Assembly: GCF_003334255.1 (NCBI RefSeq)
Contig: NZ_QOWU01000035.1
Source of the DNA: Escherichia coli
GTDB taxonomy: Bacteria > Pseudomonadota > Gammaproteobacteria > Enterobacterales > Enterobacteriaceae
Strand: one strand, 5' to 3'
DNA length: 55,376 bases
The translations under genes and the position numbers were made by a program. Of this stretch, positions 1-15,243 are shown in pieces; position 1 is the first letter of the stretch; each line of letters opens with the position of its first letter. Below the pieces are notes generated by a model, which saw nothing but the letters and a program-made list of their open reading frames with translations, ran no database searches and was not told where the DNA came from.

Positions 1-77
1 AGTTATCGTGAGAGTAATTCATCGGCACGTTAAATCATATCAGGCGTAATACCACAACCCTTAAGTTAGCGCTTATG
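1..77 (-). mobile_element. Terminal segment of IS186 (partial; element continues beyond the window start)
   Basis: Reverse complement of 1..77 reads CATAAGCGCTAACTTAAGGGTTG..., which I recall as the 23-bp terminal inverted repeat of IS186 plus adjacent internal sequence; the cheB reading frame is broken exactly at position 77/78. Confidence 0.65.
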
Positions 78-980
78 GGTCCATGCCCCCGCCTGACGCA
101 TCGCCAACATTCCTGCCGCGCCGTCGTTGCCCATGCCGGTCAGGATCACCCCAACCGCATTACGCCCCGCCTGTTTGGCGACAGAATGGAACAACACATC
201 TACCGAAGGCCGATGACGGTTAACCGCCGGGCCATCGTGAATTTTGATTTGATAATTTGCGCCACTACGCGCCAGCTCCATATGCCGATCGCCCGGCGCG
301 ATATAGGCATGTCCCGGCAAGACGCGCTCTCCGTCTTCGGCTTCTTTAACCCCGATCTGGCAAAGCTTATTAAGTCTGTCGGCAAAAGAGCGGGTGAAAC
401 CGGGCGGCATATGCTGGGTAATTAACAGTGCCGGGCTGGAAAGCGGCAACGGTTGCAGTACGTGACGAATTGCCTCAGTTCCACCCGTTGAAGCACCAAT
501 CGCAATCAGTTTTTCAGAACTCAGCAACGGCCCCGCCTTCAGCGTTGTCGGTGCCGACAATGGCTTATGTGCTGCAAGGCTCGCCTTTGCTGCCGTACGC
601 ACCTTTTCAGCAATCATTTCGCTATACGCCAGCATACCTTCGCGAATACCCAGTTGCGGTTTGGTGACAAAATCTATCGCCCCCAGCTCCAGCGCGCGCA
701 GCGTAACTTCTGACCCTTTGCCGGTCAGGGAAGAAACCATCACAACGGGCATTGGACGCAAACGCATTAATTTTTCGAGGAAATCCAGTCCGTCCATCCG
801 CGGCATTTCAACATCCAGCGTCAATACATCGGGATTGAATTTCTTAATCAAGTCACGCGCAACCAGCGGATCAGGCGCGGTCGCCACCATTTCCATGTCG
901 CTATGGCTGTTGATGATTTCTGTCATGATCTGGCGCATCAGTGCCGAATCATCGACAGATAACACCCTGATTTTGCTCAT
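78..980 (-). pseudogene. cheB: Chemotaxis methylesterase CheB, 3'-truncated after codon 301 by the IS186 insertion (the ORF runs into the IS as ...[12 protein letters not shown])
   Basis: Translation [19 protein letters not shown]... matches the CheB receiver and methylesterase domains; canonical CheB is 349 aa, so the last ~48 residues are missing and replaced by 3 IS-encoded codons. Confidence 0.85.
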
Positions 981-982
981 CG

Positions 983-1843
983 TTAATCCTTACTTAGCGC
1001 ATACACCGTCTGACCACGCAGCGTGAAGCGGCGCTCAAGGTGGCTAAAGTTTTCAGAGTGACCCGCAAACAGCAATCCGTCGGGTTTAAGGAGCGGAACA
1101 AAGCGGCGCAAAATCTCCTGCTGGGTAGTTTGATCGAAGTAGATCATGACGTTACGACAGAAGATCGCATCAAACGGCCCCGGCACGGTGTACTGTTTCG
1201 CCAGTAAATTCAGCGGGGCAAAATCAACATAGTTCGCCAGCTCCTGACGCACGCGTACCAGCCCTTCATGCGGTCCCGTCCCTCGCATGAAATACCGTTG
1301 CAGTTGCTGCGGCGTCAGGTTTTTCAACTCTTCATGGCGATAGATACCGCTTCTGGCTTTTTCCAGCACTTCGGTGTCGATATCACTGGCAAACACTTTC
1401 CAGCGTCCGGGCGCGGTGCCCAATGTGTCAGCCAGCGTCATCGCAATGCTGTACGGCTCTTCGCCGGTCGAAGCCGCCGCGCTCCATACGCGATACTCGC
1501 CAGAACGGCGACGTGCGTGATCCGCGAGCAGAGGGAAATGATGTGCCTCACGGAAAAATGCCGTCAGATTCGTGGTCAGCGAATTGATAAACGCCTGCCA
1601 CTCACCGCTGTGCTGATTAGATTCCAGCAAGTTCAGATAATGACCGAAATCCGTCAGTCCCAGTGAACGCAAACGACGAACCAGTCGGTTGTAAACCATG
1701 TCGCGTTTATGGTCAGCCAGAACGATCCCGGCTCGTTGATAGATCAATTGACTTATCCGCCGAAAATGCGCGTCGGAAAGCGCCAGGCGCTCGGTCATCT
1801 GTAACAATAAAGACGTTTGCCCACAGGGCAGAGATGAAGTCAT
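983..1843 (-). CDS. cheR: Chemotaxis protein methyltransferase CheR
   Basis: 286-aa [20 protein letters not shown]...; SAM-dependent MCP methyltransferase; overlaps the cheB start as in the meche operon. Confidence 0.95.
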
Positions 1844-1861
1844 AGCGCCTTCTCAATCACT

Positions 1862-3463
1862 TCAGGATACCACTGGCGCAATTTGTAACTGCGCCGACTC
1901 ATGTCGTGCTACTTCATGTTCTTCAAGGGTAAATACCGCCACACGCGACGAAAGATGGTCGGCCTGATTCGCCAGTTGTTCCGTTGCCACCGCCGCTTCT
2001 TCTACCAGCGAGGCGTTCTGCTGAGTCACCTGATCCATCTGGCTGACAGCCTGTGCAACCTGCTCAATCCCCCGCCGTTGTTCTTCCGACGCCGAAGCAA
2101 TTTCTCCCATAATGTCGTTCACGCGGGTCACCGAACTGACAATATCGGTCATGGTCGCGGCGGCGTTATTCACCAGTTTCGAACCCTGCTGGACACGATT
2201 GACTGACTCTTCGATCAGCCCTTTGATCTCTTTTGCTGCCTGCGCGCTACGGCTGGCAAGATTGCGCACTTCACCTGCCACTACCGCAAAACCACGCCCC
2301 TGCTCTCCGGCGCGAGCCGCTTCCACTGCCGCATTCAGGGCCAGAATATTGGTCTGGAAAGCAATTCCGTCGATAACGCTGATAATGTCGCCAATTTTTT
2401 GCGAGCTGGTGGCGATCTCCTGCATGGTGTGAGTCATGGTACTGACCTGAACACCGCCCGCCTGCGCCGTTGTCGCGGCATTTTTTGCCAGTTCCGACGC
2501 CTGTCGTGCGTTATCGGCGTTTTGCCCTACCGTGGCGGTTAATTGCTCCATACTGGCGGCCGTTTGTGCCAGCGATGCCGCCTGCTGTTCGGTACGACTT
2601 GAGAGATCGTTATTGCCTGCGACAATCTCCGCGATACCAATGTGCATCTCATGGCTTCCCTTACGCACATCACTCACCGTCCCACGCAAAGCCTGCTGCA
2701 TGGTCTTCAGGCTGGCAAAAATGGCGGTGATCTCATTACGACCATATACCGCAATCGGACGCGCCAGATTACCCGCAGCAATGCTGTCAAAATGGCTACC
2801 GATAATGGCCAGTGGTTGAACAATCATCTTGCGCGTCCACCACAGCGCACTGCTGATGTAGATCGCCGCAACAGTAATCATGCTGATAAACACCAGCGCC
2901 GAAATCTGATAGTTACGCTGGCTTTGCGCACTGGCGGCTTCCAGCACATGGTTGATCTCCAGCTGCCAGGCCTCAAAGTTAACGTCAAACGCATTCTGTG
3001 ATCCCTGCACCGGCGCAGTGAGGAAATCCGAAAGTTGATTACTTTCAAGCCAGGTCGCCTGATGTTCGAGATCGTTGTGCCAGCGGGCAAAACTTTTCTC
3101 CGTCTCTTTTTGCAATGCTCTGACGTGCTCGTTGCCCGCAGTCATCGCCATAAAACTTTTAAACAGCGTGGTGGATTGCGTCAGACTGGCGCGCGCCGTC
3201 GTCATCAACGTTTTAATGTCATCCGCCGGATAGCTAAGCGCTGTCAGAGTGCCTGCTTTGTTCAGCGCGGTACTGGCCTGTAACATTACCGCCCGAGTTT
3301 GCGCTAATGCCGCACGTTGCTGATTGCTCTGCTCGACCTGATTCAGTCGTTGCAAATCGTCGCGAAATGCCCAAAAAGACATGCCGTTACTGCCAATCTG
3401 CAAGATCCCGCAGAGAATCAAAATTAAAAACAGCGTGGTCGAAATTCGAATACGATTAAACAT
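1862..3463 (-). CDS. tap: Methyl-accepting chemotaxis protein IV (dipeptide/pyrimidine receptor Tap)
   Basis: ORF trimmed to MFNRIRISTTLFLIL... (533 aa); conserved MCP signalling domain; position between tar and cheR. Confidence 0.92.
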   Translation of the reverse strand: MFNRIRISTTLFLILILCGILQIGSNGMSFWAFRDDLQRLNQVEQSNQQRAALAQTRAVMLQASTALNKAGTLTALSYPADDIKTLMTTARASLTQSTTLFKSFMAMTAGNEHVRALQKETEKSFARWHNDLEHQATWLESNQLSDFLTAPVQGSQNAFDVNFEAWQLEINHVLEAASAQSQRNYQISALVFISMITVAAIYISSALWWTRKMIVQPLAIIGSHFDSIAAGNLARPIAVYGRNEITAIFASLKTMQQALRGTVSDVRKGSHEMHIGIAEIVAGNNDLSSRTEQQAASLAQTAASMEQLTATVGQNADNARQASELAKNAATTAQAGGVQVSTMTHTMQEIATSSQKIGDIISVIDGIAFQTNILALNAAVEAARAGEQGRGFAVVAGEVRNLASRSAQAAKEIKGLIEESVNRVQQGSKLVNNAAATMTDIVSSVTRVNDIMGEIASASEEQRRGIEQVAQAVSQMDQVTQQNASLVEEAAVATEQLANQADHLSSRVAVFTLEEHEVARHESAQLQIAPVVS

Positions 3464-3508
3464 CAACGCTCCCCATCAGGCGGCAATGACCGCGTTAGTA
3501 AATACTCG

Positions 3509-5170
3509 TCAAAATGTTTCCCAGTTTGGATCTTGTTCAGCAATTCGCAGTCGTGGCTGTGCCGGTGGTTGCTCACTGGCAGGACGGGATGGTGTTTGCG
3601 GTTTATTGGTGAGTGGGCTGGCTGCCAGACGAAACGCGGAAACCGCTTGCGTTAAACGACTAGCCTGTTCTTCCAGCGCAGCTGCAGCGGCAGCTGATTC
3701 CTGCACCAGCGATGCGTTCTGTTGCGTGACGCGATCCATTTCCGAAACCGCCAATGCGACTTGATCGATGCCACGGCTCTGTTCATCCGATGCCGATGCA
3801 ATCTCGCCCATAATGTCAGTCACGCGAGTGACAGCATTGACGATATTGTTCATTGTTTCCCCGGCGCTTTCGACCAGCACCGAACCGGTATCAACGCGCG
3901 AGACGGAGTCTTCAATGAGAGCTTTGATCTCTTTTGCCGCCTGGGCGCTACGACTGGCAAGATTACGCACTTCGCCCGCCACCACGGCAAAACCACGGCC
4001 CTGTTCACCCGCTCGCGCGGCTTCAACCGCGGCATTCAGCGCGAGGATATTAGTCTGGAAGGCAATACCGTCGATAACGCTGATAATGTCGGCAATTTTC
4101 TTCGAACTATCGGCGATCTCATGCATCGTTTTCACTACGCCATCCACCACTTTGCCGCCGTGCTGGGCGGTGTCGGAGGCACTTTGCGCCAGTTGCGAGG
4201 CCTGGCGGGCGTTATCGGCGTTTTGCTTCACTGTCGCGGTGAGCTGCTCCATGCTGGCGGCAGTTTCTTCCAGCGCGGATGCCTGCTGTTCAGTACGGGA
4301 GGAAAGATCGGTGTTGCCCGCCGCAATTTCACGGGTACCGGCATAGATGGCATCTGAACCTTCGCGGACATGAGTGACGGTGTCAGTCAAAGAGCGTTGC
4401 ATATGTGAAACGCTCTGCGCCAGGTCGCCCATTTCACTGCGCCCGTCAATGGTCAGGGTATTCGCCAGGTTACCACCGGCGATTTCGCGAATGTGAGCAA
4501 TAATTTTTGCCAGCGGTGTAAGCAACATACGGCGAATGCCGTACCACGCCACCAGCAGAATCAATACCACCACCAGCGCGATAACCGCCAGTTGCCACTG
4601 GGCAAATCGGTAATCATCTGCGTTGTCAGTGACGATATCGCGATACAGTTTTTCACTGCTGAGGGCGTACTGAGCAAACGCTTCGCCCATTGCATTTTGC
4701 ATTCCCTGGGTTGGCTGAGCGAAATAAGCTCCAGTATTGCCATAATCAAGATAATCAATCAGTTCAGTTAATGCTGTGTGATAGTTTTTATATTTTTCAT
4801 CAATATTACGACTGGTAGCGACCATTTCAGGTAACGGTGCCATACTTTTGAATTTTTTATAATGAGTCGCGGCCTGGGCCAATGTTTTCCTGGCGCTATC
4901 GAGCAATTCAACTTTGGCATTACTTTGTTGATTGGAGGAATCCATCATCATTCGCACCGCTGAACGACTCAGGTTAATGCGCGTTTGCAGCATTAAATCC
5001 CAGGTTGACGTCAGCTCGCCCTGCTGTTCCCGTAATTGATTGGAAACCACAAAGCTCTTCTGGCTATGGTGAAGGGAAGAAAAAAACAGACTGCCGGAAA
5101 TAAGCTGTAACAGTGCGAATACCCCCAGCACCATTACCAACAGCGTGACTACGCGGATACGGTTAATCAT
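3509..5170 (-). CDS. tar: Methyl-accepting chemotaxis protein II (aspartate/maltose receptor Tar)
   Basis: ORF trimmed to [18 protein letters not shown]... (553 aa); C-terminal NWETF pentapeptide present. Confidence 0.93.
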
Positions 5171-5201
5171 AAGGCACCTTCCTGAAAACAAGTTGATCTC
5201 G

Positions 5202-5228
5202 TTATCGGCAAGGAAGGGGGAAACTTTA
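5202..5228 (-). promoter_or_regulatory. Sigma-28 (FliA) class 3 promoter for the tar-tap-cheRB operon
   Basis: Minus strand reads TAAAGTTT-N11-GCCGATAA, a perfect match to the sigma-28 consensus, about 30 bp upstream of the tar start. Confidence 0.75.
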
Positions 5229-5254
5229 TTGCTGATGCCACCCGCCGCGAAATT

Positions 5255-5288
5255 GAAATAAAAAACCCGATGCGCAGATCATCGGGTT
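5255..5288 (-). terminator. Intrinsic terminator downstream of cheW (end of motA-motB-cheA-cheW operon)
   Basis: GC stem CCCGAT/ATCGGG followed by a U-run on the minus-strand transcript. Confidence 0.6.
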
Positions 5289-5314
5289 CATTTCAATTGA
5301 GGAAATCAGGAGAA

Positions 5315-5818
5315 TTACGCCACTTCTGACGCCGCGCTATCTAACAGCGCCATCTCTTCGCTGTTCAGCAGTTTTTCGATGTTCACCAGAATCAACATCC
5401 GGTCGCCCAGTGCGCCCAGTCCAGTGAGATATTCTGTTGAAAGCGTCACGGCAAATTCCGGTGCCGGACGAATTTGCTCCGCCGTCAATGAAAGCACATC
5501 TGAAACGCCGTCAACCACGATGCCGACCACCCGCTGTCCGAGATTCAGGACGATAACTACCGTGTTGTCGTTATAGTCCACATCCACCTGGCTGAACTTA
5601 ATTCGTAAGTCAACAATCGGCACAATAACGCCGCGCAGATTCGTGACGCCTTTGATAAACGCTGGCGTGTTCGCAATCCGTGTTACCTGATCGTAGCCAC
5701 GGATCTCCTGCACTTTCAGGATATCAATACCGTACTCTTCATCACCAAGGGTAAATACCAGAAATTCCTGGCCTGACGGCTCGCTGGCCAGCTTTGTTAC
5801 ATTCGTCATACCGGTCAT
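5315..5818 (-). CDS. cheW: Chemotaxis coupling protein CheW
   Basis: 167-aa [36 protein letters not shown]... Confidence 0.96.
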
Positions 5819-5838
5819 ATTGTTACCTTTTTACTCAT

Positions 5839-8730
<2,892 letters not shown>

Positions 8731-8734
<4 letters not shown>

Positions 8735-9618
8735 GCTTCCTCGGTTGTCGTCTGTTGTTGCGGATTTTTCACCGCACGCACATGCTCTTCCAGTTCAATA
8801 AACGACGGACGTTCGCTGGAATAGAGCGTTTTGCGACCAAACTCAACGGCGATAGGCGGTGCGTAACCGTTCAGATTAGAAAGCAGTGTGACTTTGACGC
8901 ACTGCATCATTTTGCTGGTTTCGGCGCTTTTCTGACGTAAAACACTCGCTAATGGGGAAATAAATCCGTAAGCCAATAAAATGCCGAGGAAAGTCCCCAC
9001 CATCGCATGTGCGATAAGCGCCCCCAGCTCGGCGGCAGGACGATCGGCTGAACCTAACGCGTGAACGACCCCCATTACAGCCGCGACAATACCAAACGCC
9101 GGAAGTGAGTCCCCGACCAGCGCCAGACTGTTCGCCGGGACTTCTGCCTCGCTTTCGTGCGTCTCAATCTCTTCATCCATCAGGGCTTCGATTTCGAAGG
9201 TGTTCATGTGACCGCTGATAATCAGGCGCAGATAATCGACGATAAAATCAAGCATGACGCTATCCGCGAGGATGCGTGGGTAGCTGGCGAAGATCTCGCT
9301 CTCACGGGGATTTTCAATATCACGTTCCAGCGAAAACATCCCCATCTGCCGCGATTTCGCCATCAACCGATAAAGCAGAGCCAGCAGATCCATATACATT
9401 GCTTTGGTGTATTTGGAGCGACGAAACAGCAACGGCAGCGCCTTCAGCGTGCCTTTAATCGCTTTGCCATTATTGCCGACGATAAACGACCCAATCCCTG
9501 CACCGGCAATAATCACCAGTTCAGCGGGTTGATAGAGTGCTCCAAGGCTTCCACCGGTCATCAAATAACCGCCGAAAACTGTACCGAGAACAACCAGGTA
9601 ACCTAATAAGATAAGCAC
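8731..9618 (-). CDS. motA: Flagellar motor stator protein MotA
   Basis: 295-aa [37 protein letters not shown]...; 4-nt overlap with motB. Confidence 0.96.
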
Positions 9619-9684
9619 GACATCATCCTTCCACTGTTGACCATGACAGGATGTTCAGTCGTCAGGCGTTAACGCGCGATTGGG

Positions 9685-9719
9685 GCAAAAAAAAGCAGCG
9701 GTACGTCGTTACCGCTGCT
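9685..9719 (-). terminator. Intrinsic terminator downstream of flhC
   Basis: Stem GCAGCGGTA/TACCGCTGC followed by an 8-nt U-run on the minus-strand transcript, 25 bp after the flhC stop. Confidence 0.65.
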
Positions 9720-9744
9720 GGAATGTTGCGCCACACCGTATCAG

Positions 9745-10323
9745 TTAAACAGCCTGTACTCTCTGTTCATCCAGCAGTTGTGGGATAATATCGGCAGGAT
9801 TCTGGGAAAGTTTACGTCTTTTTACTGCCCGGGATGGCGGTTGACATAAGCTGCAGGCAAAGCTGCCAACAGGCTGGTGAGCGTGGGTAATAAAATTGCC
9901 GCCGCAGCAGTTGCAGCTGGAAAGTTGCAGTAATCCACTTTCAACAAACCGCACCAATGTCCAGGCACGGGTTAATGCCAGCAGCGGTCCTTCTTCTGCT
10001 TGCGGGCACTGTTCAAGGTATAAACGGTAGGCTTTGATCACCGCGTCGACGCCATTACACAAACCGGTTTTCAGTAAAAACTGCCATGCATTACAGAACA
10101 TCGAAGCATGAACGTTTTGTTCCCAGGTCATAAACCAGTCGGTTGAGAATGGCAGCATGCCTTTCGGCGGTGGGCTTCCGCGCAGTTCTTTATAAAGTTT
10201 TATCAGGCGTCCGCGACTTAACTGTGTTTCGCTTTCAAGCATCTGCAAAAGAGCGCCCAAGGTGATCAATTCCATTGCCAGCTGAATATCCCGCGCTTCC
10301 TGAACAATGCTTTTTTCACTCAT
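9745..10323 (-). CDS. flhC: Flagellar master regulator subunit FlhC
   Basis: 192-aa [27 protein letters not shown]...; Cys-rich zinc site present. Confidence 0.96.
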
Positions 10324-10325
10324 GA

Positions 10326-10676
10326 TCAGGCCCTTTTCTTGCGCAGCGCTTCTTCAGGCTGATTAACATCATTCAGCAAGCGTGTTGAGAGCATGATGCC
10401 GGTATGAATTTGCTGGAGATCGTCAACGCGGGAATCTTGCGTCAACTGAGTAATCGTCTGGTGGCTGTCAAAACGGAAGTGACAAACCAGCTGATTGGTT
10501 TCTGCCAGCTTAACCATTTGCGGAAGAGTCAGTGCCGCTAATGTTGTCGCCATTTCTTCATTTATGCCGAGACGAAACATAGCGGACGCTTTGTCCTGAA
10601 CAATCAGACGCTGTGCAAGTAGTAAATATGACAAGTTGATGTCATAAATGTGTTTCAGCAACTCGGAGGTATGCAT
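10326..10676 (-). CDS. flhD: Flagellar master regulator subunit FlhD
   Basis: ORF trimmed to [24 protein letters not shown]... (116 aa). Confidence 0.94.
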
Positions 10677-11455
10677 TATTCCCACCCAGAATAACCAACT
10701 TTATTTTTATGCGGTTTCACCGCACCCCGTGATGTCGCCGGGAAGCCCCGGTAAAAAATAATTAGCATTAGAATAGTTGCGATAAGCTGCAATAAGCAGA
10801 GCCACCTTTTTGGTTTAATAAGTCCTTACAAATAGAAGGGGGTCTTTACACTTATCTAAGATTTTTCCTAAATCGACGCAACTGTACTCGTCACTACACG
10901 CACATACAACGGAGGGGGGCTGCGATTTTCAATAATGCGTGATGCAGATCACACAAAACACTCAATTACTTAACATAAATGTATAAGTCATACTTTTGTT
11001 TTGGGTGTATTTCAATCTGTTAAAAAGTTTTTCGCTACGCTAGCAAGCAAAAATGAAACAGGAATAATCGAAATGGGATGTTGCGCACAGTTAAAATAAC
11101 TCACCGTAAATAATCATCTGCTATAAATAATCACTTTCATGCAATACCAGATAAGCTATTTTTAAACAGACACTTACCGCACAACAAACTAATTAAATAC
11201 AAAGAAAGGCAACAATCAACTTTATGTTAATAAAATGTTTTGCATATATTAACCACTTGTTTAATGCGGAGAATCAGTACATTATTTTCTTATAATTACA
11301 GTTGAAATCATATGATCACCGAGAGTGATTGATTAATTGTCTTTACTAATAATCAGACTAATATTTACCTGTTTGACTGAGTTGGGATTGCGTCGTTTCT
11401 CCATTAGGAGTAAAGCTTTAATGTCACCTGAAGTTCACAGAATAAGGAACAGGTT
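10677..11455 (-). promoter_or_regulatory. flhDC class 1 promoter, long 5'UTR and upstream regulatory region (shared divergent region with uspC)
   Basis: About 780 bp of AT-rich non-coding DNA upstream of flhD with no ORF of note; established as a multi-regulator input region. Confidence 0.7.
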
Positions 11456-11884
11456 ATGAGCTATAGCAATATTCTTGTCGCTGTTGCGGTTACACCGGAA
11501 AGTCAGCAACTGCTGGCAAAAGCGGTATCTATCGCCAGGCCAGTAAAGGGACACATCAGTTTAATTACTCTCGCTTCCGACCCGGAAATGTACAATCAAT
11601 TAGCTGCGCCGATGCTTGAAGATTTACGCAGCGTGATGCAGGAAGAAACGCAAAGCTTTCTTGATAAGTTAATTCAGGATGCGGGGTATCCCGTTGACAA
11701 GACGTTTATTGCCTACGGTGAGTTAAGCGAACATATTCTGGAAGTATGTCACAAACATCATTTCGATTTGGTGATTTGCGGTAATCACAATCACAGTTTC
11801 TTTTCGCGAGCATCCTGCTCGGCGAAAAGAGTGATTGCCTCAAGTGAGGTCGATGTGCTGTTAGTTCCACTTACGGGAGATTAA
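11456..11884 (+). CDS. uspC: Universal stress protein C
   Basis: 142-aa ORF MSYSNILVAVAVTPESQQLLAKAVSIARP...; UspA-family fold; position between flhD and otsA. Confidence 0.9.
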   Translation: MSYSNILVAVAVTPESQQLLAKAVSIARPVKGHISLITLASDPEMYNQLAAPMLEDLRSVMQEETQSFLDKLIQDAGYPVDKTFIAYGELSEHILEVCHKHHFDLVICGNHNHSFFSRASCSAKRVIASSEVDVLLVPLTGD

Positions 11885-11890
11885 CCGCTC

Positions 11891-15243
<3,353 letters not shown>

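Follow-up and report, generated by a model that had tools for sequence, protein, structure and literature searches.

IS186 insertion truncates cheB in Escherichia coli at a near-consensus target site that is used in both orientations

IS186 belongs to the IS4 family and encodes a cut-and-paste DDE transposase, InsL. Insertion sequences are known to erode flagellar and chemotaxis genes in E. coli and Shigella lineages that are non-motile. Mutants with a null cheB are expected to be biased toward tumbling and unable to adapt, their receptors being over-methylated and not deamidated. The described target of IS186 is 5'-GGGG(N6/N7)CCCC-3', which accepts the element in either orientation because its flanks are palindromic (Lee et al. 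2016, PMC5009759; also PMC6925257). In mutation-accumulation lines, fimA and menC were described as coding-region hotspots of IS186 (Lee et al. 2016, PMC5009759). The lon promoter is a hotspot in both E. coli B and K-12, where insertions are described at the same position in either orientation with a 10-12-bp duplication (SaiSree et al. 2001, as cited in PMC3045373 and PMC3861542), and from which IS186 excises precisely (PMC3861542). Opposite orientation at one position served there as a criterion for independent insertions (PMC3045373). The main text of Lee et al. 2016 (PMC5009759) does not mention cheB, and no report of an IS186 insertion in cheB was found in the literature searched.

The window analyzed here is a 55,376-nt stretch of E. 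coli DNA (assembly GCF_003334255.1, contig NZ_QOWU01000035.1), which begins inside an insertion sequence and runs directly into cheB (Table 1). The sequence-only reading had taken the first bases for an IS186 end, and alignment bore this out: window positions 1..79 matched the terminus annotated as 'insertion sequence:IS186A' in E. coli K-12 MG1655 (NC_000913.3) at 79 of 79 positions (E = 8e-39). The visible part of the element is one end of 77 nt; IS186 runs on past window position 1, with insL and cheB in the same direction. Base 77 is common to the IS186 end and cheB, which leaves a 1-nt ambiguity in the position of the junction.

Table 1. Features of the window at the cheB and fliR junctions
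Feature	Coordinates	Strand	Evidence
IS186 terminal 77 nt, end upstream of transposase gene insL	1..77	-	79/79 identity to IS186A end
IS186 23-bp terminal inverted repeat, CATAAGCGCTAACTTAAGGGTTG on minus strand	55..77	.	matches both IS186A ends
cheB truncated ORF, 304 codons	66..980	-	translation, profile matches
IS186-derived stop of cheB ORF	66..68	-	IS sequence
IS186-derived codons H302 K303 R304	69..77	-	IS sequence
cheB native codons 1-301	78..980	-	match to K-12 CheB
Target-site copy GGTCCATGCCC (= GGGCATGGACC on cheB strand); left copy, the sole one in the window	78..88	.	far-side duplicate in carrier locus L001
Upstream operon genes tar, tap, cheR, apparently intact	983..5191	-	ORF lengths
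fliR truncated: native codons 1-218 (261 in full), with R + stop added by IS1	54645..55304	+	IS1 end match
IS1 terminal 77 nt; window ends inside element	55300..55376	.	77/77 to MG1655 IS1A end

Residues 1-301 of the window CheB are those of K-12 CheB (349 aa), save for N120S and S237A. Beyond T301 the K-12 sequence is LAQNEASCVV... and the window ORF reads HKR-stop, where the strand enters the IS sequence CATAAGCGC. Both the breakpoint after codon 301 and the loss of the last 48 codons, as originally read from the sequence, were thus confirmed: the K-12 match ends at T301, cheB matches begin at base 77, and the domain matches are incomplete. The ORF covered profile positions 2-313 of 357 in NCBIfam CheB PRK00742 and model positions 1-138 of 174 in Pfam CheB_methylest, so that 36 positions at the end of the esterase model, ~21% of its length, are absent. 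The receiver domain is kept, with the Pfam Response_reg match at CheB residues 6-108. The phospho-acceptor Asp56 and the catalytic triad of Ser164, His190 and Asp286 are all present. The solved CheB structures 1A2O and 1CHD (catalytic domain, residues 147-349) extend to residue 349; residues 302-349 therefore belong to the catalytic fold. Since the catalytic domain is incomplete, the gene was filed as a cheB pseudogene. Judging from these matches, CheB(1-301)HKR is most likely misfolded, inactive or unstable, although residual activity is possible given the retained triad. Such a truncation would abolish demethylation of the receptors and their Gln-to-Glu deamidation, and with them chemotactic adaptation.

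The upstream genes appear unaffected: the tar, tap and cheR ORFs of 560, 534 and 286 aa cover the expected 553, 533 and 286 aa, and in the 100% identical carrier locus L002 the three genes are called at 553, 533 and 286 aa. Expression of the downstream genes cheY and cheZ may be reduced by polarity, which we offer as a conjecture. A terminator scan of both IS186 strands returned two terminator-like sites versus 1.9 expected by chance, none of them strong in the cheB direction. Compared with laboratory cheB null mutants of E. coli K-12, the window allele differs in keeping the receiver domain and the catalytic triad, and it may be polar on cheYZ.

The uninterrupted cheB target reads GGGGGCATGGACCCTTGCG, and K-12 carries the same cheB site, at about position 1,967,600 of NC_000913.3. 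Written as GGGG(G)CATGGACCCT, it spans codons 298-302 and lies one mismatch from GGGG(N6/N7)CCCC, which substantiates the earlier remark that the junction sits in a G/C-rich target. The stretch GCG GGG GCA TGG ACC CTT holds GGGG(CATGGA)CCCT, with the mismatch in one flank. Beyond the element, cheB from codon 302 onward would read GGGCATGGACC-CTTGCGCAAAAC. No perfect GGGG(N6/N7)CCCC site occurs within the window, and the intact reference region has, over 49 kb, only five or six sites with one mismatch.

The cheB site shares with the lon promoter hotspot the same element, recurrence at the exact position in both orientations, a G/C-rich target, a duplication in the 10-12-bp range and inactivation of the gene. 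It differs in lying within a coding region (codon 301), one mismatch off consensus, and in coming from natural isolates rather than laboratory selections; insertion in cheB is also much rarer, with the junction in either orientation present in 0 of 5,426 complete RefSeq E. coli genomes. With the fimA and menC hotspots it has in common a site-specific, orientation-independent, recurrent insertion in coding sequence and a palindromic G4/C4 flank; however, its GGGG(CATGGA)CCCT motif places it in the minority class with a flank mismatch. The codon-301 site shows known IS186 behavior (lon promoter, fimA, menC) in a new gene and reveals no new mechanism.

One carrier, L001 (GCA_900450175.1), has a contig that crosses the whole element, 381 kb in length. 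Its IS186 measures 1338 bp (L001 positions 10904-12241), is 99.85% identical to IS186A and has perfect inverted repeats, with the 23-bp CATAAGCGCTAACTTAAGGGTTG at both ends; its DDE_Tnp_1 gene points in the same direction as cheB. Identical 11-mers GGGCATGGACC at 10893-10903 and 12242-12252 flank the element as a target-site duplication. They are followed by cheB codons 302-349, cheY, cheZ, flhB, flhA and flhE. The 1338-bp element, the 11-bp duplication and the collinear remainder make this a simple insertion in L001. The sequence-only reading had asked whether the IS end marks an insertion or a breakpoint; this was settled for the sister carrier, and the contig of the window strain stops inside the IS. 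As a separate observation, a G-run in the L001 copy (11120..11130) has five G versus six in IS186A, so that insL is frameshifted with a gene call of 316 aa; either the gene is truly inactivated or the long reads may have miscounted the homopolymer.

By exact match, the 304-aa CheB was found in 41 collection blocks and on no fewer than 32 contigs in public data, labelled Escherichia coli (NCBI, ENA, Logan); the identical insertion point in all of these carriers is a consequence of the exact-protein look-up. The cheB matches in complete E. coli genomes, 5,385 in number, all begin at query base 77. Nine carrier loci fell into about five flanking haplotypes, 12-196 SNPs apart over 11 kb, with synonymous differences inside cheB as near as 60-250 nt from the junction. 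The 23-bp repeat is followed by TGGTA, the insL-proximal end, in the window, L001-L005 and L007, and by AACC(A), the opposite IS186A end, in L006, L008 and L009; IS186 is therefore present in both orientations, the second being defined by 4-5 nt in Logan contigs. The IS186 part of the window is 100% identical to L002 and has one mismatch to L001, and the copy in L001 and L003 differs from that in the window and L002 at IS position 42. Since both orientations occur at the same base, there have been at least two independent insertions at the cheB site; from the haplotypes, their number is probably five or six.

Two observations on tap were made in the same loci. In L001 (7520..9119) and L003 (7519..9119) the gene has a 1-nt frameshift that is absent in otherwise identical non-carrier relatives. 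In L005 (8893..9012) a ~1.36-kb deletion leaves a 39-aa fragment of tap, the window gene being intact. The ends of several Logan contigs at ~23.7 kb were considered as a shared IS and rejected: they coincide with the leuZ-cysT-glyW tRNA cluster and represent a repeat break, not common ancestry.

Relative to its nearest complete genome, MLI023K1, the window carries 118 SNPs in the first 12 kb (77..12000), from cheB to the flhD upstream region, and only about 11 over the other 43 kb. Its che-mot-flhDC block is of a different haplotype and matches the complete genomes G1/2, G6/7 and G8 at ~100% identity, which suggests import of this block by recombination, with one boundary near 11.3-12 kb. These complete genomes have 13-14 query matches per chromosome, suggesting that IS186 is present in many copies in this background. 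Elsewhere in the window, yedD has a 66-bp in-frame deletion (22 codons) versus MLI023K1 at ~38799..38808, with ~10 nt of shared sequence at the deletion junction (the two BLAST segments have 10 nt of the window in common). An IS200/IS605-family tnpA together with ybcM, ybcL and emrE lies between yedF and fliE (41567..44107). This block adjoins remnants of an SOS-response-associated peptidase gene, and the same arrangement is annotated in MLI023K1.

At the other end of the window, fliR (786 nt in the reference) is cut by IS1, whose identity at this junction extends to 120 of 120 nt in L013. The 219-aa FliR product was found on nine public contigs, among them the GCA_965136505.1 contig that also carries cheB::IS186. 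FliR is a core component of the export gate, and with this truncation flagella are probably not assembled in the window strain. With no flagella because fliR is cut by IS1, the cheB defect would be masked and may have no visible effect; the phenotype expected here is that of laboratory cheB nulls, probably hidden by fliR::IS1. The other flagellar, motor and che genes in the 55-kb window are all full-length ORFs. The presence on one contig of two flagellar-regulon genes, cheB and fliR, each cut by an IS resembles the decay of non-motile E. coli and Shigella lineages, whereas the full-length state of the remaining flagellar and che ORFs sets the window apart as a case of early or limited decay. 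A Shigella origin was considered, given a contig bounded by IS copies and the lack of the junction in complete E. coli genomes; it was rejected since the deposited proteins carry the label Escherichia coli and the region is in other respects collinear and intact.

Exactly 77 nt of IS stand at each end of the window (IS186 at the left, IS1 at the right). The window is most likely a whole short-read contig bounded by two IS copies, because a k=77 short-read assembler would be expected to leave just this much of a repeat at each break. The IS186 end could nevertheless be a rearrangement breakpoint, left by a deletion or inversion between IS186 copies, with the 3' part of cheB and cheYZ-flhBAE elsewhere or lost. 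The window does stop inside IS186, IS-mediated recombination is described as common in E. coli (PMC5009759), and the 13-14 IS186-end matches of the G1/2, G6/7 and G8 relatives mean that recombination substrates may exist. We nonetheless consider a breakpoint unlikely, as the lone carrier with a long contig, L001, is a simple insertion with an 11-bp duplication, and a complete genome aligns collinearly with the 55-kb window except at the IS ends and the 66-bp gap. A simple insertion in the window strain is accordingly judged likely, by analogy with L001. Contig ends at repeats are error-prone and the IS stretch is just 77 nt, so an assembly artefact, either a chimeric contig end or a minority IS sub-population, was also weighed. 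It appears extremely improbable: the junction is reproduced in the independent assembly GCA_965136505.1 (100% over 10,980 nt), whose contig CBCRYS010000029.1 (55,461 bp) matches both window ends at 100% identity and carries both the 304-aa CheB and the 219-aa FliR. The same junction also occurs on the public contigs from NCBI, ENA and Logan counted above, including the 381-kb L001 contig with its complete element.

The distribution of the junction could likewise be read as a single ancestral cheB::IS186 allele spread by descent or homologous recombination, the site not being a recurrent target. The shared insertion point speaks for this, but the look-up was by exact protein; in addition, the 12-kb flhDC-cheB block of the window has a haplotype other than that of the rest of the contig, and arrival by recombination is possible. 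One event for all carriers is refuted by the opposite IS186 orientations, which a single event cannot produce. The SNPs between carriers, 108-196 per 11 kb, reach into cheB beside the junction, and the IS copies differ at IS position 42. Moreover, every carrier haplotype is matched, at ~100% identity, by complete genomes whose cheB is intact: the window flank by G1/2, G6/7 and G8, L001 by O121 strain 201805972 and others, L005 by MS1170 and A20 (99.9% to LF82), L009 by AMA1167, WCHEC020031 and others, and L004 and L006 by HUE1, WL164 and NCTC11121. A common ancestral allele is thus very unlikely, and recurrent use of the site is preferred. Such recurrence might in turn be taken to mean that codon 301 is a recurrently used, perhaps reversible off-switch selected in host-associated E. 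coli. Such a switch, if real, would turn off either chemotactic adaptation or cheYZ within the operon, and would account for unrelated lineages having IS186 in both orientations. We regard it as doubtful: recurrence is the sole support for a selected or reversible switch, and the target motif already accounts for recurrence. A target this close to the consensus accounts for an insertion that is both recurrent and rare, without invoking selection.

The explanation we favor, and hold to be very probable, is transposition of IS186 into cheB at the near-consensus site, yielding a pseudogene. The insertion parts codon 301 from the last 48 codons, with the IS terminal repeat supplying HKR and the stop. 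The product keeps the CheY-like receiver and the Ser164/His190/Asp286 triad and lacks about a fifth of the methylesterase fold. The abrupt start of the window within IS186 would reflect the breaking of short-read contigs at repeats. This is ordinary IS pseudogenization, that is, gene decay.

For the strain, the combination of cheB::IS186 and fliR::IS1 would probably mean a non-motile or non-chemotactic state. Because the 304-aa product is named as an ordinary CheB in public records, recognition of the truncation is useful for annotation. For IS186, cheB joins the few known recurrent targets (lon promoter, fimA, menC) as a natural example within a coding region, and a site with one mismatch to the target consensus can be used repeatedly in the wild.
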